Virus record (IMG/VR): IMGVR_UViG_2565956726_000008
Reading direction: 5' to 3' (one strand)
DNA length: 64,000 bases
Origin: a virus
Lineage: Duplodnaviria > Heunggongvirae > Uroviricota > Caudoviricetes
Each line of letters starts with the position of its first letter. The stretch's first letter is position 1. The translations under genes were made by a program, and so were the position numbers. Of the stretch, positions 3,961 through 55,381 are shown piece by piece. The notes under the pieces were generated by a model that was given only the letters and a program-made list of their open reading frames with translations, was not told the origin of the DNA and did not search any database.

Positions 3961-5076
3961 TTACAAAATGGAATATTCAGGGTAATAAACAAAACGCCCG
4001 ATTTCCCCATGATCCGGGCTGTAAATAATCACCGCTGCCATCCGCCGCGACCGCCATCCGCCATTTGTTGAGTAAGCGTCTTTACCCGCTAACGTGCCGT
4101 GATACTCAACAACGCCTAACGATGATTCAATCAGCCGTTGATGATGCCAGTGCCCGCAATGAGCGTAAACCGCCGCAGACTTGCCAAAGTCTTCTCGCCA
4201 GTCAGAGACGCAGGCAGACAACAAATTTTCAGGTTTTTTGATAGTATGACCGTGATGATATGCAAGGAATGTTTTGCCGTACTGTGTGTGGTGGACGATG
4301 GCAGGTGACACATCAACAGTAACGCGCGGTTCGTCTTCGTAAAAAGCCGCCAGCGCCGCACGTAGCCAGATCATTCCTGACTGGTCGTGATTACCTGATA
4401 ACACCTGAATTTCTACATCCTTATGATTCAACATCTTACCCACAGCACGCCGTACCGACCGGATCGCTACATAGACAAGTTTTGCGTAGCGACTATCTTG
4501 ATCAAGAATGTGCCCGCTTGTTGGTGTAACCGGAACCATTCCATCAGAGTGAAGCAGATCGCCACCTAACAGCAATACAGCTTTTTCAGACATCGGCGCT
4601 GCGCCTACAGCGTAGTCAAAGAAGTCATTTAACACGCGCTCAGCGATCCCAGTGTCGTAGCTCTCTCCGCATTCAGCTTTATGAGCAAGCGCCCCGATAT
4701 GCAGATCAAATACCGGATAAAGGGCCAGGCTTTTTTGGAAATCAATTTCCGGCACTGGCACGGCCTCCGCGCGGGGTATTTCTTCCGTGAAGGCGTCACA
4801 AGCAGATTGCATTAGCCTTTCCATTTCATCGCGATCACGGGCTGTTTTAATCCAGCGCATAATCACATTGCCATCTTTATCAACGAGCAATGATTCACCG
4901 TCAACACCGAAGCCAGGAGCGCGGCGAGTGGATATTAAACCGCGCTTCGCCAACCTTGCGCCCAGTCGTTCGACATTGCGTTTTGACATGCCGTATTTTT
5001 CAGCGATCTGTTTATACGTTAAACCGTTGTTATATTCAGCGATTAGTTGTTCATCGCTGATCTTTCTTTGTGACAT
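3961..5076 (-). CDS. N-terminal HTH fused to calcineurin-like metallophosphoesterase
   Basis: 371 aa; N-terminal HTH (LTYKQIAEKYGMSKRNVERL); phosphoesterase motifs DLHIG, GGDLLHSDG, SGNHDQ, HHGH, GHWHH. Confidence 0.7.
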   Translation of the reverse strand: MSQRKISDEQLIAEYNNGLTYKQIAEKYGMSKRNVERLGARLAKRGLISTRRAPGFGVDGESLLVDKDGNVIMRWIKTARDRDEMERLMQSACDAFTEEIPRAEAVPVPEIDFQKSLALYPVFDLHIGALAHKAECGESYDTGIAERVLNDFFDYAVGAAPMSEKAVLLLGGDLLHSDGMVPVTPTSGHILDQDSRYAKLVYVAIRSVRRAVGKMLNHKDVEIQVLSGNHDQSGMIWLRAALAAFYEDEPRVTVDVSPAIVHHTQYGKTFLAYHHGHTIKKPENLLSACVSDWREDFGKSAAVYAHCGHWHHQRLIESSLGVVEYHGTLAGKDAYSTNGGWRSRRMAAVIIYSPDHGEIGRFVYYPEYSIL

Positions 5077-5109
5077 AGTGTTATTTCCTCAGGTTTACAT
5101 TTTGTATAT

Positions 5110-6051: not shown

Positions 6052-6201
6052 AATTATTTCCCCTTACCAAATCAAGCAAAACGCCTCAGACTCTCTGCAA
6101 CGCAAAAATCCCACCGCGACACCCGTTTGCACAGGTTGCAGTGTCTTATTGCGTCAGAGGCGCTATCAGGTGGCTAATTTTAGATTTACAGACTGGTAGG
6201 T

Positions 6202-6306
6202 GAGTTATGGATTAACTAGAAGGAACAAACCGCCGAACAAAACGACGTTTACAGCGATTGCCGCAGCGATGGCAAAAGCCACGGCGAAAACGTGTTTACT
6301 ATCCAT
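6202..6306 (-). CDS. small hydrophobic peptide (34 aa)
   Basis: ATG preceded by agagagg RBS; translation MDSKHVFAVAFAIAAAIAVNVVLFGGLFLLVNP is a single predicted transmembrane helix. Confidence 0.3.
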
Positions 6307-6439
6307 TTTAAAATCCTCTCTGTAACGCTCTCTAACGAGCTAATCGCAAAAAGGTAAGCAAGTGTAGCACCACATGCGATTTAGCTCGCTGGTGAGGTTG
6401 TTTTGTGGGTAATTTTGGATTTTTGCGGATCGTGGTTGG

Positions 6440-7486
6440 TCAAAGAGCGCCAGCGCGCGTATCACGTAGCGTTTTTGGTTTAAGCAGGAAATCAAGTGTC
6501 GCAGTGAAGCCATTGCCGAAGTAAAAATCTGAAGCCGTGTTTTTGAACGTTTCGAAGTAGGCGACAAAGCCGTTAATGCTTTTGTCTTTCAGGTAGTCAG
6601 TGAACGCATAGATCTTGCGTTCAAGATCCCGATCCAGTTCGGCAGGTGGTAACAGGCCGTCAAACGTGCTGTTAAATGCTTCCACCACGTCGGCAGCGTT
6701 TACAGTAGCTGATAGCTTGCGCCATTGCTCAGCGTCAGCCAGATACCCATCGAATTTAGTTACCCGGCAAATGTTGATAGGCTTAGGTGTTCCACCACGG
6801 CTGCGCCATTGCGTCAAAGCCCATTCGATTACTAATGTGATCTCATCCTCCGTGTATGCCTTACGTGTTTTTGTTTCTGTCAGTAGTTCGATAAATGGCT
6901 TAGCATCACGACACTTGCATCCAGCTTTGTCGTTGTAGAAGGCCAAGCAACGCAATGCCGCTTCGTTTACGCCATCCTGATTGACCGTTTTTTGTCCATT
7001 TTCGCTAATACACGAAGTGTATATATCTTTTTCTCTTTCTTCTTCTACTTCTAATTCATGACCCTTTCCTGACCCGGTCATGACCCTATCATGACCTTTT
7101 GGTGTTGGATTGATTAACTTCTCTAATTTTAATTGCTCCTTCGCTGTGTTTATAGCAGCCCTATAAGCGCTCTTAGAAGTCATTGATTGGTCCAGCCTTT
7201 TTAATAACTTTAGGCAAGTTATGTGGCCTTGAGAACATTCGAACAAACCAATTTCGATGAAGTATTTCATCATTTCTTCTATACGTTTTTCAGTAGATCC
7301 GACGTTTCGCGCAATGATTCTCGCGTCATGTCGTAGGTCAAAATTCAGATTGTGCTGATCTACGTCATAAGTTATTAGTTCGAGGCAATACCAATAAAGC
7401 CCGTACCCTTCCAGGCCATAATCTAACAAAACGTTTTGAAGTTTTTCATCGCGGTTCGCATCGCTGTCATGCTTAAACCACTTCAT
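6440..7486 (-). CDS. Replication initiation protein (O-like replisome organiser)
   Basis: 348 aa; N-terminal MKWFKHDSDANRDEKLQ...YGLEGYGLYWYCLELI resembles the N-terminal domain of phage replication initiators; sits between Cro-like gene and helicase. Confidence 0.6.
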   Translation of the reverse strand: MKWFKHDSDANRDEKLQNVLLDYGLEGYGLYWYCLELITYDVDQHNLNFDLRHDARIIARNVGSTEKRIEEMMKYFIEIGLFECSQGHITCLKLLKRLDQSMTSKSAYRAAINTAKEQLKLEKLINPTPKGHDRVMTGSGKGHELEVEEEREKDIYTSCISENGQKTVNQDGVNEAALRCLAFYNDKAGCKCRDAKPFIELLTETKTRKAYTEDEITLVIEWALTQWRSRGGTPKPINICRVTKFDGYLADAEQWRKLSATVNAADVVEAFNSTFDGLLPPAELDRDLERKIYAFTDYLKDKSINGFVAYFETFKNTASDFYFGNGFTATLDFLLKPKTLRDTRAGAL

Positions 7487-7489
7487 AGA

Positions 7490-7747
7490 TCATCCCTCCG
7501 GCAACATCACTACATAGACATCACTGAATGCATCAAGACGACAAACAAATCCTTTATCCATTAACGCGGCGAAGGCATCATGTACCGTATGAACAGGAAG
7601 TTCACACATTGCGGCTACTTCTTTGCGTGATGCATCATGTACCCGTCCTTTGTTATCTGCCTTTTCAGCCAGAGCCATTAAGACAAGTTTTTGAATCGGG
7701 CTATTAAGTTTTACGTTCCATGCTTTACTAATCATGTTCATACTCAT
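7490..7747 (-). CDS. HTH DNA-binding early regulator (Cro-position)
   Basis: 85 aa from ATG at 7747 with aggag RBS (longest ORF extends to 7825 with TTG); first gene of leftward operon, divergent from CI-type repressor. Confidence 0.5.
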   Translation of the reverse strand: MSMNMISKAWNVKLNSPIQKLVLMALAEKADNKGRVHDASRKEVAAMCELPVHTVHDAFAALMDKGFVCRLDAFSDVYVVMLPEG

Positions 7748-8052
7748 CGCATTTTCTCCTATGGTTAGAGTGAACGCGCGGGCGGGCATCCCATTAGCAT
7801 TAGATAGCAGTGACTGACCGCTCAACAGATCCCGCCGTTGCGTGATATTTGTTTTTCGCTTCGCAGCGACACCGGATTTTTAAAGAGCATAAGGTAAGTG
7901 CCTTTTTGTGCCTTCAGTTATCTTTTTCCTTGCGTCTTTGCAAGTATGGCCTTACCTTGTCTGCAAGTTTACAAAATGGAATTTTAAGATCAAGGCTTAA
8001 AATACACGTTTTGTGACTTGCATCAAACTTTTTGAGGTTATAGGGTAGCGAC
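7748..8052. promoter_or_regulatory. Immunity region: divergent promoter/operator interval between Cro-like and CI genes
   Basis: 305-bp intergenic; palindromic half-sites CTTGC-N6-GCAAG (7929-7944), CTTG-N3-GCAAG (7956-7967), AAGG-N6-CCTT (7891-7904). Confidence 0.5.
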
Positions 8053-8700
8053 ATGAAAACAAAATGGTATGACTTAGCAAAGCAGCTCATGCGGGCGCAG
8101 GGCATGAGTCAGGATTCACTCGCAGATCTCATGGGGATAACTAAAGGCGGCCTGTCACACTGGCTGAACGGTCGCCGCGAGCCAAATCTTGAAGATATTG
8201 CGCGGATTATGCGGGCGCTTGGTCGTCGGCAGTTCACTGTTACACATGATGGTATGGTCATTGATGATTCTGTTTCTAATACACTTCAGGCCGCACCGCC
8301 GCGTGATTTAGGTAGTTACCCGGTTATTGACTGGAAGGACACAGTAAACAATATGGATGACACAAGGCGATCAGCATTACCACACGTTACGACTAGCGTT
8401 ATTTGTTCAGATGATAGTTACTGGCTGGTTGCCAAAGGTGAATCAATGAACGCGCCGCAGGGGTTGAGCATCCCGGCGGGGACGATGATACTTGTTGACC
8501 CGCACGCGCCAGCTATTGACGGCAAACTGGTTATAGCCCAGCTTGAGGAAGGGCAGATACCGACGTTTAAACAGTTGATTATTGATGGAGGTCAAAGGCT
8601 TTTACGTTCGCTCAATCCGCTGTATCCGCCAATCCCTATGAATCCAGAATCAAAAATTATAGGCGTGGTGGTTGATGCGAAGATCGTAAACCTGCCATAA
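8053..8700 (+). CDS. CI-type repressor (XRE HTH + S24 LexA-like peptidase)
   Basis: 215 aa; N-terminal HTH (MSQDSLADLMGITKGGLSHWLNG), C-terminal S24 fold with AKGESM Ser motif and downstream Lys. Confidence 0.9.
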   Translation: MKTKWYDLAKQLMRAQGMSQDSLADLMGITKGGLSHWLNGRREPNLEDIARIMRALGRRQFTVTHDGMVIDDSVSNTLQAAPPRDLGSYPVIDWKDTVNNMDDTRRSALPHVTTSVICSDDSYWLVAKGESMNAPQGLSIPAGTMILVDPHAPAIDGKLVIAQLEEGQIPTFKQLIIDGGQRLLRSLNPLYPPIPMNPESKIIGVVVDAKIVNLP

Positions 8701-9106
8701 ACATTAGCCGCCGGATGGCGGCTTTTCTTTGCCTGGAAAACGCCAAAACGTAAACAGAAAACGTTATTTATTGTTTAAATATCAATAGCATATAAAATAT
8801 TTTAAAAAAGTATACAAAATGGATTGACTCGATGTTTTACGGGGCGTATATTGCGAGTCAAAGGAAGGTCGCAGGTAACAAAAGCAACTTCCTGGCACTT
8901 TAAAAATCAGGCTTAACACCTTGTCAACCGTGGAGTAACTCCCCGATGGGGGACCGAAAGCGGCACTGATAACAAGGCGCATGGGGTGTTTAAAGCGTTA
9001 CATCCCCCACGAAACCGCACGCAAGGCGACGAGTCAGCTTGCTTGGAGTGAGCAAGGTCACGCCGGGAACGGCGATGATTGCGGGATTAGTTGAAAGATG
9101 TTAAGC

Positions 9107-9200: not shown

Positions 9201-9491
9201 ATGAGCGTTACAATCATGTATGGCAAATGTGACAGTAAACTGAATGCCAGGGAACGCAGAAAAATAAAAAGAGAAAACGAAAGAAAATCATCACCTGCAA
9301 TCAATAAAACAGACAATGTGGATAAAGCTATTCGATTTGCAAACGAGGAAAGATGCAAACCAAATAGCATTAAAGAACGTCGCAAAGGATCAGTAAAATG
9401 GTATACGGAAAATGAAAGCGGCAGCTACTACCACGCAACGCAACCACGCCATTTAGGGGAAAAACCCCTGGATAAAGTCCGCTACCATTAA
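9201..9491 (+). CDS. putative N-like antitermination protein
   Basis: 96 aa, basic; arginine-rich motif NARERRKIKRENERK near N-terminus; ggag RBS; follows nut-like site. Confidence 0.35.
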   Translation: MSVTIMYGKCDSKLNARERRKIKRENERKSSPAINKTDNVDKAIRFANEERCKPNSIKERRKGSVKWYTENESGSYYHATQPRHLGEKPLDKVRYH

Positions 9492-9520
9492 TACAAAATG
9501 TAAACATCCGGAGATGACAT

Positions 9521-12268: not shown

Positions 12269-12730
12269 ATGAACGACATCAAAACAGCTTATTCACTCGG
12301 CAGCGACGGTATGTTAATCACTCGCTACACTGACGACGCGAGCTTTCACGAAGTGTTAACTAAGGACTATCACGAAGTATTAAAAGATATGAACGCAGGC
12401 GCATATGACGGTGATTTAAATCTGGCGCTACAGGTTGTTGATATTGTGATGGATGCGTCAATCCGCGATTACGTGTCTTTAAGCAGGGAAGAAAAAACAT
12501 CGGTAGCGCGTTATGTATTCTCTCTTACTTTTGTGAAGCGCATGGAGGAAGAATTCGGACGCGTACCAGTGCCGGAAGAGGTTGAACCGCTCGCGTTCGG
12601 AAGTGCTGTTATTTTTCCGTTGAACAAGGATCAGCTTGGTGGTGTTTCACTGCATTCTATGCGCGGCCTGATGAAAAATATCTTTGAGGTTAAGATGTTG
12701 CAGAAATTCATTGAGGAAGGCCACAAATAG
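12269..12730 (+). CDS. hypothetical protein (153 aa)
   Basis: ATG at 12269 with aagga RBS (longer ORF from 12239). Confidence 0.45.
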   Translation: MNDIKTAYSLGSDGMLITRYTDDASFHEVLTKDYHEVLKDMNAGAYDGDLNLALQVVDIVMDASIRDYVSLSREEKTSVARYVFSLTFVKRMEEEFGRVPVPEEVEPLAFGSAVIFPLNKDQLGGVSLHSMRGLMKNIFEVKMLQKFIEEGHK

Positions 12731-12988
12731 GAAGAAGTAAAAGCGCTCATGCCATTGTTTTACGGTGAAATGGTTGGCAATGATATGCGTGCAAATGATT
12801 TCGGCGTACAGGCGGCTATCGCTGTGCTTAATGAGGCACGGGAAAACGCACAGCCAATGCCTGAACAGGGGAAACGTGTACTGCATTAACCGAGTAATTC
12901 CGATCACATAAATATACATTTTGTATTGTGAACGCATATCCGTTTTGTAAGCCGAAATCAAAAGGTTTACGGTGCGGAGGAAGCAAAA

Positions 12989-13207
12989 ATGGAACGCGAA
13001 TTGATGCTTTATTGCGTAGAAGGTGGCGTAGGTCACGATGCCTACGTCGCCGGGAAAGACTATCCAGCCGATGAAGTGCTTTCTAATATGCACTTCAGAG
13101 AAAATGAAAGCCAGGTGTCTGTGTGGAAACGGTGTATTGATGGTATTGAGGTTGTAAGTATCGAACGGTATTTAGGCACGTTTGATTACGGTGTTATTGA
13201 GGCTTAA
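12989..13207 (+). CDS. hypothetical protein (72 aa)
   Basis: ORF with ggagg RBS. Confidence 0.4.
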   Translation: MERELMLYCVEGGVGHDAYVAGKDYPADEVLSNMHFRENESQVSVWKRCIDGIEVVSIERYLGTFDYGVIEA

Positions 13208-16278: not shown

Positions 16279-16357
16279 TTTACAAAATGGCATCATTGCG
16301 TGATGCGGATCACATAATGGCGCTTTTTGCCTTGTTTGGGGGTATCCATTTTGTATA
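16279..16357. repeat. Intergenic motif pair TTTACAAAATGG / CCATTTTGTATA flanking GTGA-N6-TCACA palindrome
   Basis: tttacaaaatggcat (16279-16293), cgtgatgcggatcaca (16299-16314), atccattttgtatac (16343-16357). Confidence 0.7.
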
Positions 16358-16435
16358 CTTCAAGCAAACAAAATGCTCTTTAAAAATCCGGCAGCGCTGA
16401 AATGCGTAGAAATCACCTGAAAAGGAGAGAGCATT

Positions 16436-22956: not shown

Positions 22957-22999
22957 TTTACAAAATGGCATTGTTTCAGCAGTGCCATTTTGTTATAAA
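22957..22999. repeat. Intergenic palindrome TTTACAAAATGGCA-N12-TGCCATTTTGTTATAAA
   Basis: Near-perfect inverted repeat in the 100-bp gap between small-ORF arrays. Confidence 0.7.
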
Positions 23000-23034: not shown

Positions 23035-23313
23035 ATGAAACGCTGGATTAACAAAGAAGTCGAATCTCGCTTAAACGCATTTTGGGAGATGGTGGAGAAA
23101 GAAGACCCAGCACACGCTGCAAGCCCTTACCTGAACAACATCGAATATCACTACATTGCAGCAAACAACGCGGAGTTCGAAGAAGAAGGTGGAGCCGACA
23201 AGTTCGCACAAAGCAACGCATTCAACAACGCAAACGAAATGATGATGGCAGTCATCGAACAGGCAGAGGAAGACTACGAATGCAAATCACTTGAATTTGC
23301 ACGCATGGCATAA
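23035..23313 (+). CDS. hypothetical acidic protein (92 aa)
   Basis: ORF with ggag RBS downstream of palindrome. Confidence 0.4.
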   Translation: MKRWINKEVESRLNAFWEMVEKEDPAHAASPYLNNIEYHYIAANNAEFEEEGGADKFAQSNAFNNANEMMMAVIEQAEEDYECKSLEFARMA

Positions 23314-37323: not shown

Positions 37324-37800
37324 ATGTCTCAGACTTGCGAAAAAGGCACGTTTACAGGCCGTGACGTTGCTGTATTCTTCGCTATCGCTTGTCCAAATGC
37401 GAAGCCGGAAGTTGGAGCGTACAAAGCGTTAGGCATGATGCGTGGTAAAACACTTTCCGTTGAATGGGAAACCGCTGACGCCACCGCCGATAAATCAGCC
37501 GATTACACGAAAGAATCAATGGTTACTTACAAATCCGTTTCTTTCTCCGGCGACGGTGTGTCCCGCACTGAAGAAATCCATAATCAGAAAGCGCTGAAAC
37601 GCCACGTAATTACGCCAGGTGAAACCACCGGATCACAACCTTATGTATGGCTGAAGATCGTTTCTCCTGTAGACGTAACTGAAGGCCCATTCCTTTGCAC
37701 TTCCTTTAAAGAAGAAGATCCGCATGATGATGTTTCCACCTGGTCTATTGAGTGCGAAAGCGCTGGCAAGGTAACGGTAGGCGACGTTCCGCCAGCATAA
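37324..37800 (+). CDS. putative major tail protein
   Basis: 158 aa; strong RBS; followed by terminator hairpin; position ahead of chaperone and tape measure. Confidence 0.45.
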   Translation: MSQTCEKGTFTGRDVAVFFAIACPNAKPEVGAYKALGMMRGKTLSVEWETADATADKSADYTKESMVTYKSVSFSGDGVSRTEEIHNQKALKRHVITPGETTGSQPYVWLKIVSPVDVTEGPFLCTSFKEEDPHDDVSTWSIECESAGKVTVGDVPPA

Positions 37801-38558: not shown

Positions 38559-38879
38559 TTATGCTATTTTTTCGTAAAGCACATTCATCTGGGTGCGAAT
38601 CACTGTTAATATATTGATTGCTGCGTTCTTATTAATGCGTTTATTCGCTACTATTTTTGTTTTCCCATCAATAACAACCAGATCTGCGTGCAATACATGG
38701 TTGAAGTTGACAATGTAATAATACTGTTTATCGCCAACATGTTGAACATATGCACCATTTAGATTTCCTTTATACCCACAATCACGCTCTGCGACACCGA
38801 AGTCAAATTCGCGGTTCATCTTGCGATTATATGCTACTTGTTTATGTTCCCATTTTCTCATCCATTCATCGCGTTTCAT
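38559..38879 (-). CDS. moron: hypothetical protein (106 aa)
   Basis: Minus-strand ORF inside plus-strand tail module. Confidence 0.5.
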   Translation of the reverse strand: MKRDEWMRKWEHKQVAYNRKMNREFDFGVAERDCGYKGNLNGAYVQHVGDKQYYYIVNFNHVLHADLVVIDGKTKIVANKRINKNAAINILTVIRTQMNVLYEKIA

Positions 38880-38888
38880 GTTTCACCC

Positions 38889-39548
38889 TTAATTCCAGTT
38901 GCAAGCGTTTTTCACTTTGTCGATGTGGTTATAAAGACCATCAATGTTAAACACTGCTTTCTCAATGTCGCCAGCTTCCGGCACTGCTTCAATGATAAAT
39001 TGTTTTTCGTTAACCAGTTTTTTAATCATTGGGATGGCTTTTTTGCCGTCCCATAATCCAAGAGCTTTATAATTAGTTGACCGCCACCACTCAGTAGCTA
39101 CAGCTTTGTGATCGCCGATCCGGTAGTTAATATAAGTAGTGTCCCCAGCGTCAGTTACATGGTTTGACCATGCTACGAACATTTTTGTTTTATTACCCTG
39201 GCAAGCGATTGTTAATACAGGTTTGTTTTCATCCCGTGCTTTCAGTGTAGGGAAAGCATCAAGACTTCCGCTGAAATGTTCTGCTTTCACGAAAAGGAAC
39301 ACGTTTTTTGTGTCCTGCATATCATCTTTTCTTTCGACCACAAGCCACTGTTTACCAGCTTTTTCTTTTGCTAACTGTGCCTCATATGCGGCTTGTTTTG
39401 CTTGTTGTTCTGCAAGCCATTTAGCATTTTTCTCTGCTAATGCTTGTTGTTCTTGAGTGGTCACTATAGGCGCTTTTTCATTATCCTCATTGCAACCAAC
39501 CAGACCCAATACCGCCGCAATCATTGCCACTTTTGCTAACCGTTTCAT
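38889..39548 (-). CDS. moron: lipoprotein (219 aa)
   Basis: Signal peptide MKRLAKVAMIAAVLGLVGC with lipobox LVGC; Ala/Gln/Lys-rich coiled segment. Confidence 0.65.
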   Translation of the reverse strand: MKRLAKVAMIAAVLGLVGCNEDNEKAPIVTTQEQQALAEKNAKWLAEQQAKQAAYEAQLAKEKAGKQWLVVERKDDMQDTKNVFLFVKAEHFSGSLDAFPTLKARDENKPVLTIACQGNKTKMFVAWSNHVTDAGDTTYINYRIGDHKAVATEWWRSTNYKALGLWDGKKAIPMIKKLVNEKQFIIEAVPEAGDIEKAVFNIDGLYNHIDKVKNACNWN

Positions 39549-39593: not shown

Positions 39594-39655
39594 TTTATAC
39601 AAAATGGAGTCGTTGAAGTAAAGCCATTTTGTATAAAATAGATACACAGATCACA
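39594..39655. repeat. Intergenic palindrome TTTATACAAAATGG-N16-CCATTTTGTATAAAA plus ACACAGATCACA
   Basis: Lies 20-80 bp upstream of tape measure start. Confidence 0.7.
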
Positions 39656-42025: not shown

Positions 42026-42051
42026 CCCGGTGCAATGCCGGGGTTATTTTT
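42026..42051. terminator. bidirectional Rho-independent terminator
   Basis: cccggtgcaatgccgggg + ttattttt; same stem-loop sequence as the terminator after the capsid gene. Confidence 0.8.
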
Positions 42052-42533: not shown

Positions 42534-42601
42534 TTGGGCCTCCTTCGTTGGTACTACTTTCTTCTTGCTTTCTATATACATCTTGTTGCGTGCTATGTGA
42601 A

Positions 42602-42685
42602 GCCATTTTGTAAACTAGCTATAATCATTGTGACAATGATCTTATTTTTCGCGTAGAAGCGCGTAAAGATATATACAAAATGTAA
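42602..42685. repeat. Intergenic motif pair GCCATTTTGTAAA ... ATATACAAAATGTAA
   Basis: Copies of the recurrent motif upstream of the M-like gene. Confidence 0.6.
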
Positions 42686-42699
42686 CTTGTGGGGGTTTT

Positions 42700-43053
42700 A
42701 TGCCGGAAGTGTTCAGATGGACGCCGCAAAGAAGCTACAGCGTGACCAGGAAGCCAGACGTATCTGTTGTTAAGCTGGGCGATGGTTATGAGCAAAGACA
42801 GGTAAAAGGTATCAATCCATTGCTTGATAGCTACACCCTGGTGTTTAAAGGCAGTAGCGCCGGATGTGGTGATGGTGGAAACGTAGCAATCCAGGCGGAA
42901 GCATTCTTGAGGGCGCGCGGCGCGGTCGAGGCTTTTTACTGGTCGCCGTCAATGGATAACGTGCAAAGGCTTTTTGTCTGTCGGCAATGGAGCATGACTA
43001 AAGACGGGCCTTTGTACACGCTAAACGCAACGTTTGAGCAAGTTGTTGGCTAA
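42700..43053 (+). CDS. minor tail protein, lambda M-like
   Basis: 117 aa; by-eye match to lambda gpM family. Confidence 0.7.
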   Translation: MPEVFRWTPQRSYSVTRKPDVSVVKLGDGYEQRQVKGINPLLDSYTLVFKGSSAGCGDGGNVAIQAEAFLRARGAVEAFYWSPSMDNVQRLFVCRQWSMTKDGPLYTLNATFEQVVG

Positions 43054-43664: not shown

Positions 43665-44012
43665 TTATTTATCGAATGCTGAAAGGTTATCGATACAGAA
43701 ATCTTTCGCCGCTTTTTCGTATTCGCGTTTTGCTTCTGGATCGTCAGCCGGGAAACCTTTTGCGTGTATTTCACCAGGGCAAGACTGGTCCATAGAATCT
43801 GCATAATAAGCAGTGAAGCTACCATTAATATCTTTCGGGTTCATATCTTCCACCTCATCAACTATCTGTACCGGATTAGCAGCATATTTCACTGGATGGC
43901 CTAAACTACATTCAAGAATCCTGCCTTCTTCCAGGGCTACTTCTTCGCTATCAAATAATCCGAAACACTCCTTGCTACCACTTAACCACACATCAAGACT
44001 GTATTTTTTCAT
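43665..44012 (-). CDS. moron: hypothetical acidic protein (115 aa)
   Basis: ATG at 44012 with gagg RBS; overlaps upstream gene by 20 nt. Confidence 0.45.
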   Translation of the reverse strand: MKKYSLDVWLSGSKECFGLFDSEEVALEEGRILECSLGHPVKYAANPVQIVDEVEDMNPKDINGSFTAYYADSMDQSCPGEIHAKGFPADDPEAKREYEKAAKDFCIDNLSAFDK

Positions 44013-44181: not shown

Positions 44182-44195
44182 AACGCACCTCCGCG

Positions 44196-44292
44196 CCATT
44201 TTGTTAACTATGCTTCCGTTTGAGTAAAATATACATATTGTAAAAACCGCGATCAATCCATTTTGGTATGATTTAGCGTGACGCAGATCACA
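44196..44292. repeat. Intergenic motif copies GCCATTTTGTTAAC, ATCCATTTTGG and CGTGACGCAGATCACA
   Basis: Upstream of L-like gene start. Confidence 0.6.
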
Positions 44293-55107: not shown

Positions 55108-55381
55108 CAAAAGCAATTTTTCCGGCTATCTGTATACAAAAACGCCGCAAAGTTTGAGCGAAGTCAATAAACTCTCTACCCATTCAGGGCAATATCTCTC
55201 TTGCAGGTGAATGCAACGTCAAGCGATGGGCGTTGCGCTCCATATTGTCTTACTTCCTTTTTTGAATTACTGCATAGCACAATTGATTCGTACGACGCCG
55301 ACTTTGATGAGTCGGCTTTTTTTTGCCTGTTATTTATCAGCGTCTACCCTTTAAGAGTCCACCCAATGACCGGAGGGAAAT

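Follow-up and report, generated by a model that had tools for sequence, protein, structure and literature searches.

A recurrent asymmetric motif as the probable operator of the lambda-CI-type repressor in an mEpimmI-like prophage

We analysed the control region at 7748-8052 in a 64,000-nucleotide stretch of viral DNA (IMG/VR virus record IMGVR_UViG_2565956726_000008; the whole stretch is referred to as the window). The region is a 305-bp non-coding gap between divergent genes (leftward 7747-7490, rightward 8053-8700), and it carries one copy of a motif, TTTACAAAATGG, that recurs elsewhere in the window. Judging from the DNA and its relatives, the motif is probably an operator of Rep, the repressor encoded by the rightward gene rep. 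Its core would be (A/T)TAC-AAAAT-GG(A/C)n, an asymmetric member of an ATAC-N5-GTAT family, and there would be about 16-20 dispersed sites. We favour this reading because the motif is present at both promoter regions flanking rep, is matched by sites at the right and left operator (OR and OL) positions of repressor homologues, stands in a fixed geometry to predicted promoters and is conserved among relatives.

Around 7748-8052 the window is 88-94% identical at the DNA level to temperate coliphages of the mEp021 group ('mEpimmI'), and on this ground we assign its DNA to an mEpimmI (mEp021-like) E. coli prophage. The rep gene itself shares 90-94% DNA identity with phages of this group. In Pfam its product matches HTH_3 (5e-13) and Peptidase_S24 (4.4e-19), and residues 15-208 align with the lambda repressor structure 3bdn (E 1e-19). 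The mEp021 orthologue, Rep021, was cloned and confers immunity against the mEp021 phage group; for the same phage, nutL was placed upstream of the repressor gene and an N-like antitermination function has been published (PMC11893012). The region is thus the OR-equivalent early control or immunity region, located between rep and the leftward replication operon, and the repressor domains, the identity to mEp021 and the published immunity and nutL site bear out the preliminary description of this sequence, which had recognised it as such. It has been suggested that Rep possibly recognises operator sequences other than those of lambda CI; in this one paper characterising the mEpimmI group the operators of its repressor are not described (PMC11893012). 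Searching the literature for the motif yielded no relevant publication.

With at most one mismatch, TTTACAAAATGG matches 11 times in the window, compared to 0.68 +/- 0.75 matches expected, and none of 100 shuffled sequences reached 11. A weight-matrix scan retrieves about 11 high-scoring copies at 21-33 bits over a background of 10-13 bits, as well as one further copy that contains a 1-nucleotide insertion and scores 15 bits. The copies (3960, 7968, 8811, 16279/16346, 22957/22985, 39596/39624, 42603 and 44196) all fall within the prophage, three sets are arranged as inverted pairs, and the extended consensus reads AAG-T(T/A)TAC-AAAAT-GG-(A/C). The preliminary description had correctly noticed a copy inside the control region, but it lies at 7968-7979 and not at 7967-7978. 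The wider family pattern [AT]TAC[AG]WWW[TC]G[GT] produces 26 hits at 21 distinct sites in the window, where about 3.9 are expected as estimated from base frequencies; the roughly five of these 26 hits that fall into coding sequence correspond to the chance expectation. In mEp021, 13 of the 16 hits of a looser pattern are intergenic, though only 12.5% of that genome is non-coding. The orientation of the copies is independent of the direction of transcription, as those at 3961 and 7969 run against their own operon and those at 9491 and 44194 run with it.

We retrieved 44 close relatives from IMG/VR for comparison. In all 44, as well as in mEp021 and in the lineage of a more distant prophage locus, L173, the motif copies are kept at syntenic intergenic positions, and the alternative replication modules found in some relatives carry extra copies. 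The copy at 7968 reads TTTACAgAATGG or TTTACAtAATGG in many relatives, so that overall it follows TTTACA(A/G/T)AATG(G/T). Several other assignments of the motif were set aside. The 9-mer core alone occurs at 8059, 31590, 35520, 51534 and 59966, where it lacks the 5' part of the motif, and these occurrences were counted as chance or coding. The ATG within the motif is a poor candidate for a start codon, as the downstream frames have 2-5 codons or differ between copies; TTTACA is an equally poor -35 hexamer, most copies lacking a -10 at 16-18 bp; and the inverted pairs do not qualify as intrinsic terminators, since their stems are not followed by a run of U and one pair separates divergent genes. 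A scan of viral contigs with the 14-mer AGTTTACAAAATGG returned mostly unrelated single hits, as expected for the size of the collection. None of what we take to be the consensus sequences of the host factors IHF, Fis, TyrR, FNR, DnaA and LexA fits the motif in an informal comparison.

The link to Rep comes from the regions on either side of its gene and from its homologues. The best word common to the two flanking regions is the motif itself (AAGTWTACAAAATGG at 7965-7979 and 8808-8822, matching in 13/14 positions), the next best word reaching 11/14. A protein search combined with retrieval of the loci identified repressor homologues at 56%, 51%, 50% and 38% identity with near-identical recognition helices (ITKGGLSHWLNGRREP, ITKGAVSHW..., ITQGGLGHW..., VSKGAVGHW...). 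In three of them, which show the classical cI-cro layout, each cI-cro gap contains three ATAC-N5-GTAT sites with centres 33 and 25-27 bp apart, and two to three further sites spaced by 23-26 bp follow just after cI. At a background of 0.003 per bp for the loose pattern, about 0.3 sites would be expected per cI-cro gap, compared to the three found. A stricter 11-mer pattern occurs in the available stretches of these classical-layout prophages only between cI and cro (OR) and just after cI (OL). Several homologue sites come close to the motif (ATAC-AAAAT-GGAA, ATAC-AAAAC-GGAT and ATAC-AAAAT-GTAT). L173, which encodes the 56% homologue, has an mEpimmI-like gene order with the Cro gene retained; its cI-cro gap holds three motif-like sites, and its dispersed copies lie at positions syntenic with those in the window. 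When L173 is used as a heteroimmune test of covariation, its recognition helix turns out to be identical, and what is seen is conservation of the site, not co-variation.

Analysis of the sequence surrounding the copies revealed a fixed relation to predicted promoters. In 4 of the 12 forward-oriented copies, exactly 1 nucleotide separates the motif from a -35 hexamer that is followed by N17 and a -10 hexamer with a joint score of at least 9/12. These are the predicted early rightward promoter PR (TTGACT/TATATT) and the minus-strand copies at 39624 (TTTACT/TATAAA), 42603 (TTCACA/TATATA) and 44258 (TTGATC/TATATT). A fifth copy (22957) scores 8/12 at the same geometry, for which the background rate of reaching 9/12 or more is 0.26%. 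At the promoters with an operator abutting the -35, a further operator-like site extends over the spacer and -10, the -10 beginning inside its GTAT half; in inverted pairs with N16 the partner copy fills this spacer/-10 position. The distance between operator centres is 24-25 bp at PR and in four further pairs. Adjacent lambda operators such as OR1 and OR2 have the same 24-25 bp spacing, which suggests that two Rep dimers could bind cooperatively over a promoter. The enrichment, conservation, geometry and family relationship of the motif are direct properties of the compared sequences; that Rep binds it, where the promoters are and whether binding represses or activates them we infer from these.

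PR, downstream of rep, scores 10/12 in the promoter scan. Its distal operator, AAG-TATAC-AAAAT-GGAT (core 8812-8824), abuts the -35, and its proximal operator, TTAC-GGGGC-GTAT (8837-8849), overlaps the -10, with centres 25 bp apart; both are conserved in relatives. The minus strand may offer a third site, TTAC-GTTTT-GGCG, at about 8741-8753. On the other side of rep, the copy in the control region (O_A; coordinates of all features are collected in Table 1) lies across the spacer and -10 of what is predicted to be the leftward early promoter, PL. O_A is kept in 44/44 relatives with variation confined to motif positions 7 and 12; the -35 of PL reads TTGAYC and its -10 is invariant, while the 6-7 nucleotides between operator and -35 vary freely. 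A homologous promoter, TTGAAC-N16-TAAACT, precedes cro in L173. PL remains a prediction because a stricter consensus promoter scan of the region did not list it; its start would lie near 7960, and the predicted leader of about 210 nucleotides contains nutL and continues into the replication operon. The boxA/boxB pair of nutL recurs at nutR2, starting from 16374, and the nutL boxB stem is invariant in 22 distinct relatives.

A weak operator-like site, O_B, adjoins the -35 of the predicted rep promoter, with its centre 35 bp from that of O_A. It is the second-best word common to the PL and PR regions and is invariant in relatives; its L173 counterpart reads TCAC-AAAAT-GGCG. Both hexamers of the rep promoter are likewise invariant. 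No Shine-Dalgarno sequence was found at a proper distance from rep. Transcription from this promoter would begin at the first base of the start codon (8053) and give a leaderless mRNA; L173 (TAGGAT-N6-ATG) and one further homologue locus, L172 (TATAAT-N6-ATG), share the -10-N6-ATG arrangement. A P22-operator-like dyad in the same region, TTTTAAG-N7-CTTAAAA (7983-8003), was rejected, as it is not conserved among phages of the same immunity.

Table 1. Candidate operators, predicted promoters and associated elements of the window
Feature	Coordinates	Strand	Description
rep	8053..8700	+	lambda-CI-type repressor: HTH_3 + Peptidase_S24
O_A, strong candidate Rep operator	7965..7981	+	AAG-TTAC-AAAAT-GGAA, core 7969-7981; motif copy of the control region
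PL, predicted leftward early promoter	7966..7991	-	-35 TTGATC (7991 to 7986), N16, -10 TAAACT (7971 to 7966)
O_B, weak operator-like site	8004..8016		ACAC-GTTTT-GTGA (minus strand TCAC-AAAAC-GTGT); weak call
Predicted rep maintenance promoter	8018..8055	+	-35 TTGCAT (8018-8023), N17, -10 TAGGGT (8041-8046)
nutL of leftward early transcript	7856..7889	-	boxA TGCTCTTTAAAAATCC (7889 to 7874); boxB hairpin TCGCT-GCGA-AGCGA (7869 to 7856)
CTTGC-N6-GCAAG	7929..7944		about +15 to +30 of predicted PL transcript; possible 4-5 bp RNA hairpin
CTTG-N3-GCAAG	7956..7967		would span predicted PL start; its AAG is the operator's conserved 5' flank
AAGG-N6-CCTT	7891..7904		directly 5' of boxA in minus-strand PL leader; complementary to 7948-7958 (GGCCTTACCTT)
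PR, predicted early rightward promoter	8808..8852	+	-35 TTGACT (8824-8829), -10 TATATT (8847-8852); two candidate operators
Single candidate operator	3961..3973	+	gap between nuclease-like and helicase genes, directly upstream of helicase Shine-Dalgarno
Single near-palindromic candidate operator	5095..5107		ATAC-AAAAT-GTAA; 33-bp gap in leftward operon; mEp021 equivalent 7722
Single candidate operator	9491..9503		ATAC-AAAAT-GTAA; immediately after stop of N-like gene gp17
Candidate operator pair	12914..12950		ATAC-ATTTT-GTAT + TTAC-AAAAC-GGAT; sites 12914/12938; upstream of small gene at 12989
Two inverted operator copies	16280-16292, 16344-16356		flank terminator t4 (annotated in mEp021)
P_R2, predicted third early promoter	16332..16359	+	TTGTTT (16332-16337), N16, TATACT (16354-16359)
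Inverted operator pair	22958..22999	+	sites 22958/22983, centres 25 bp apart; gene at 23035
Inverted operator pair	39594..39636	-	39597-39609 + 39622-39634, centres 25 bp apart
Operator 42601-42613 with predicted promoter	42573..42615	-	abuts -35 of predicted TTCACA (42601 to 42596)-N17-TATATA (42578 to 42573)
44.2-kb control region	44194..44269	-	opposite-strand operon, which in mEp021 ends with a 'putative antirepressor' gene

Of the dispersed sites, the copy upstream of the helicase gene has the same syntenic position in the 44 relatives, mEp021 and L173, and the site following gp17 has equivalents at 12608 in mEp021 and 11281 in L173. The pair at 12914/12938, with centres 24 bp apart, has counterparts in relatives at +4.6 to +5.4 kb relative to the start of rep. 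At P_R2, the copy at 16344-16356 covers the spacer and -10, and the boxA of nutR2 (16374-16389) comes next; across the 44 relatives the spacer is variable, whereas the TTGT of the -35 and the operator/-10 do not change. The pair at 22958 encloses a predicted promoter, TTGTTT (22971-22976)-N17-TATAAA (22994-22999), and the 39.6-kb pair, conserved at 37648/37675 in mEp021, encloses a predicted leftward promoter, TTTACT (39622 to 39617)-N17-TATAAA (39599 to 39594), in front of opposite-strand genes of the tail cluster (38889-39548 and 38559-38879). Two small opposite-strand genes (42532-42377, 42359-42105) would likewise be served by the predicted 42.6-kb promoter, whose operator has an equivalent at 42049 in mEp021; a further motif copy lies nearby at 42673-42685. 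The 44.2-kb region combines an imperfect distal operator (about 44256-44269) and a -35 TTGATC (44256 to 44251) with a proximal operator TTAC-AATAT-GTAT (44243 to 44231) over the -10 TATATT (44233 to 44228), and a further leader operator (44206 to 44194) ends 5 nucleotides before a Shine-Dalgarno sequence; mEp021 has equivalents at 43921 and 43956. Apart from PL and the rep promoter, the promoters have predicted starts near 8859 (+), 16366 (+), 23006 (+), 39587 (-), 42566 (-) and 44221 (-). The preliminary description had placed the dispersed copies near morons, which holds for the opposite-strand clusters of the late region, but copies are also found in the early replication and recombination operons and upstream of nutR2.

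Two observations were made next to such sites. Between the two small opposite-strand genes and a tail gene at 42700, and beside the operator copy at 42603, the stretch 42620-42640 holds a perfect 17-bp palindrome, ATCATTGT-G-ACAATGAT, over a consensus TATAAT; it is a distinct operator-like site. In L173, two direct motif copies 39 bp apart (8557-8610) precede an inserted gene of the Rha/ANT antirepressor type, which makes this locus a second case of an antirepressor-type gene behind motif sites.

Taken together, these features suggest how the circuit might work. The weak rightward promoter TTGCAT-N17-TAGGGT would start the leaderless rep mRNA at its own ATG, with the weak O_B site beside its -35, and Rep bound to O_A over the spacer and -10 of PL would block RNA polymerase. 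PR and four or five other promoters would carry one operator abutting the -35 (centre about -41) and a second over the -10 (centre about -16), so that two cooperative Rep dimers could shut each promoter with paired operators. In the late region, such promoters would serve the opposite-strand clusters, including the operon that ends with the putative antirepressor, while single intergenic copies in the early operons may be roadblocks or may anchor DNA loops that the repressor mediates. More tentatively, one might see in this a distributed network resembling those of P1 and L5 but run by a lambda-type CI in place of a two-locus switch, with about 20 operators, three nut-coupled early promoters, autonomous late-region promoters (one of them for the antirepressor operon) and single sites as elongation roadblocks or looping anchors; we regard this wider picture as possible but doubtful. 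By analogy to lambda CI at PRM, Rep at -41 might also be an activator of some embedded promoters in the lysogen.

A number of points weigh against an assignment of the motif to Rep. The operators of the homologues are themselves deduced from position and repetition, and the homologue loci used for contrast are partial prophage sequences. The strong sites are asymmetric, having GG in place of the GT expected from symmetry, and 15 of their positions are conserved, which is unusual for a homodimer of the lambda type; the homologue sites (ATAC-N5-GTAT) do show dyad symmetry, which the strong window sites (TAC-AAAAT-GG) lack. At PR the only strong site is at -41, the position from which lambda CI activates PRM, and the site proximal to the -10 has a G+C-rich centre, so that repression of PR is not self-evident. 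Many relatives differ at motif position 7 of the control-region copy. Finally, the reverse complement of the motif resembles a -10 hexamer (TAWACT), and the pattern could partly reflect promoter sequence.

The last point leads to an explanation that we consider unlikely, in which the motif is a building block of promoters used by the host RNA polymerase alone, without a dedicated repressor: an A-rich upstream element abutting the -35 in one orientation and a TG-extended -10 (CCATTTTG-TAWACT) in the other. Such an origin would account for the -10-like hexamers at the end of the reverse complement (TAAACT, TATACT, TATAAA), for variable positions that are the ones varying in -10s, for the 4-5 copies that abut a -35 at fixed spacing and for the use of the motif as spacer and -10 in PL and P_R2. 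However, it leaves no room for a promoter at 3961, two bases from the GGAGG Shine-Dalgarno sequence of the helicase gene, or at 44196, 5 nucleotides from another; the sites at 9491 and 5095 sit in tiny gaps between genes, and the copy at 16280 points into the 3' end of a gene. For most copies there is no -35 hexamer, the 12-15 invariant positions far exceed what a promoter needs, and the same sites form triple arrays between cI and cro in the homologues. Somewhat less probable still is that the motif is bound by a different protein, be it a Cro-like early regulator, a host factor or the nuclease with a helix-turn-helix (HTH) encoded at 3961-5076, while Rep would be restricted to different sequences in the vicinity of rep. 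A long asymmetric site would fit a monomeric or two-domain binder, as for P1 C1 and L5 gp71 (PMC8546580, PMC9283540), the mEpimmI phages have no recognisable Cro, and the 3961-5076 product does have an N-terminal HTH. Yet the motif core matches the OR and OL sites of homologues in otherwise unrelated prophages that lack the candidate proteins, and the motif occupies both promoter regions flanking rep. Lambdoid Cro and CI share operators, and given this a Cro-type binder would not exclude Rep.

The preliminary description had listed three short palindromes in the control region, all of which are present, and had taken them for distinct types of half-site. That these are the true repressor or Cro operators, with the motif copy in the region incidental, is very improbable. 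In size and symmetry CTTGC-N6-GCAAG matches a classical dimer operator, its arms are kept while the spacer varies (it is a perfect palindrome in 38 of the 44 relatives), and ACTTGCA occurs three times within 90 bp. But its outer pair is broken in the other six phages, although they share the same immunity; the three palindromes have three different spacings; none of them recurs at PR, the second early promoter region downstream of rep, which must be repressed as well; and L173 retains only a shortened TTG-N4-CAA remnant of one. As a class they are barely above chance: the region has 10 exact pairs of 4-bp arms with a 3-6 bp spacer, compared to 5.0 +/- 2.6 in shuffled sequences (5% of which reach 10), and five pairs with 5-bp arms, compared to 2.0 +/- 1.7 (9% reach five). 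All three lie at or downstream of the predicted PL start, where two of them coincide with predicted RNA stems. That one immunity regulator also controls the dispersed sites, as had been proposed, gains comparative backing from the word shared around rep, from the OR and OL sites of the homologues and from the promoter geometry, but the connection runs through the motif and not through the palindromes.

Because they are missing at PR and lie within the predicted PL leader, two of them on predicted RNA stems, the palindromes may be better read, on thin evidence, as features of the leader RNA 5' of the nutL boxA. CTTG-N3-GCAAG is kept in 43/44 relatives, and the arms of AAGG-N6-CCTT are kept in all 44 while its 6-nucleotide spacer varies (eight variants including a flanking base). 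We ran RNAalifold on 22 distinct leader sequences. It predicts a small UUGC/GCAA hairpin at 7929-7944, which is invariant and therefore shows no covariation, and it pairs 7958-7948 with 7902-7891, a stem that contains one compensatory change (GC to UA, in locus L152). In the leader DNA, an 11-bp long-range complementarity of AAGGTAAG-T-GCC with GGC-CTTACCTT (7891-7902, 7948-7958) encloses the CTTGC...GCAAG hairpin and ends right before the nutL boxA. A stem, GGAAG...CTTCC, is also present just 5' of the boxA of nutR1. Rfam has no RNA family match inside 7748-8052.

The leftward gene next to the control region had been described as encoding a Cro-like protein. Instead, the 7490-7747 product matches the N-terminal DNA-binding domain of replication-initiation proteins (phrog_4617, E 3.9e-23), and there is no plausible Cro-type open reading frame within 7748-8052. 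The mEpimmI group thus seems to be without a Cro adjoining its repressor gene, unlike the L173 lineage, in which an HTH_3 Cro is present at the position of the first leftward gene. Together with 6440-7486, 7490-7747 resembles a split replication initiator in which an N-terminal winged-helix part (phrog_4617) is followed by a Lin1244-type protein. An arginine-rich N-like protein is encoded nearby by the gp17 homologue at 9201-9491. The gene at 3961-5076 codes for a 371-aa protein with an N-terminal HTH and an SbcD/Mre11-type nuclease (phrog_704). In mEp021 (L002), an HNH endonuclease gene (6080-6583) is inserted exactly between the counterpart of this nuclease gene and the operator copy next to the helicase gene, and a remnant of the former C-terminal codons of the nuclease gene persists. 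Towards the end of the window, Rfam detects the host small RNA FnrS and the rac-prophage small RNA RalA (55203-55320 and 59630-63460), and the size and position of the open reading frames at 60860-63460 (866 aa) and 60058-60924 (288 aa) resemble those of what we take to be rac recE and recT. The mEpimmI prophage would hence end before about 55 kb, beside rac, in agreement with the published insertion site in ydaM.

mEpimmI phages are reported to be as frequent in human gut isolates as lambdoid phages, and a defined operator with a map of about 20 sites would offer a testable regulatory model for the group. If the assignment is true, all three published nut sites would be served by separate operator-controlled promoters, a possible reason for there being three of them, and the opposite-strand 'morons' of the tail region would be probable repressor-controlled early genes rather than lysogenic-conversion genes. 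It would also be a rare case of a lambda-fold repressor working via dispersed, asymmetric sites.

In comparison to known systems, Rep resembles lambda CI in its fold, an HTH followed by a self-cleaving S24 C-terminal domain, in the position of its gene between two early promoter regions, in the predicted leaderless repressor mRNA and in the 24-25 bp spacing of adjacent operators, and the phage shares with lambda an N-like antitermination system with nut sites downstream of early promoters (PMC11893012). Unlike in lambda, the candidate operators are asymmetric and extend beyond OL and OR to about a dozen other loci, the OR-equivalent carries a single strong site in place of three, a Cro gene is missing, and the nut sites number three, each of them following a predicted operator-bearing promoter. 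The prophage arrays of L172, L176 and L177 share the recognition helix and the ATAC-N5-GTAT family, often with an A/T-rich centre, whereas their sites occur, in the available stretches, only between cI and cro and just after cI. The repressor C1 of the temperate E. coli phage P1 acts on 22 dispersed operators with a 17-bp asymmetric consensus (PMC8546580). Common to both would be a single immunity repressor with many dispersed asymmetric operators and an antirepressor as part of the circuit; C1, however, is an unrelated protein without S24, belongs to a plasmid prophage and recognises an unrelated operator (ATTGCTCTAATAAATTT). In the Cluster A mycobacteriophage L5, gp71 binds more than 20 asymmetric sites located at promoters and in short gaps within operons, early and late (PMC9283540), and the single copies at 3961, 5095, 9491 and 44194 occupy positions comparable to those of the L5 stoperators. 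In contrast to the HTH_3 and S24 architecture of Rep, which is that of lambda CI, gp71 is a monomer with two DNA-binding domains (PMC9283540), and the L5 sites are oriented with transcription, whereas the orientation of the sites in the window does not follow it.

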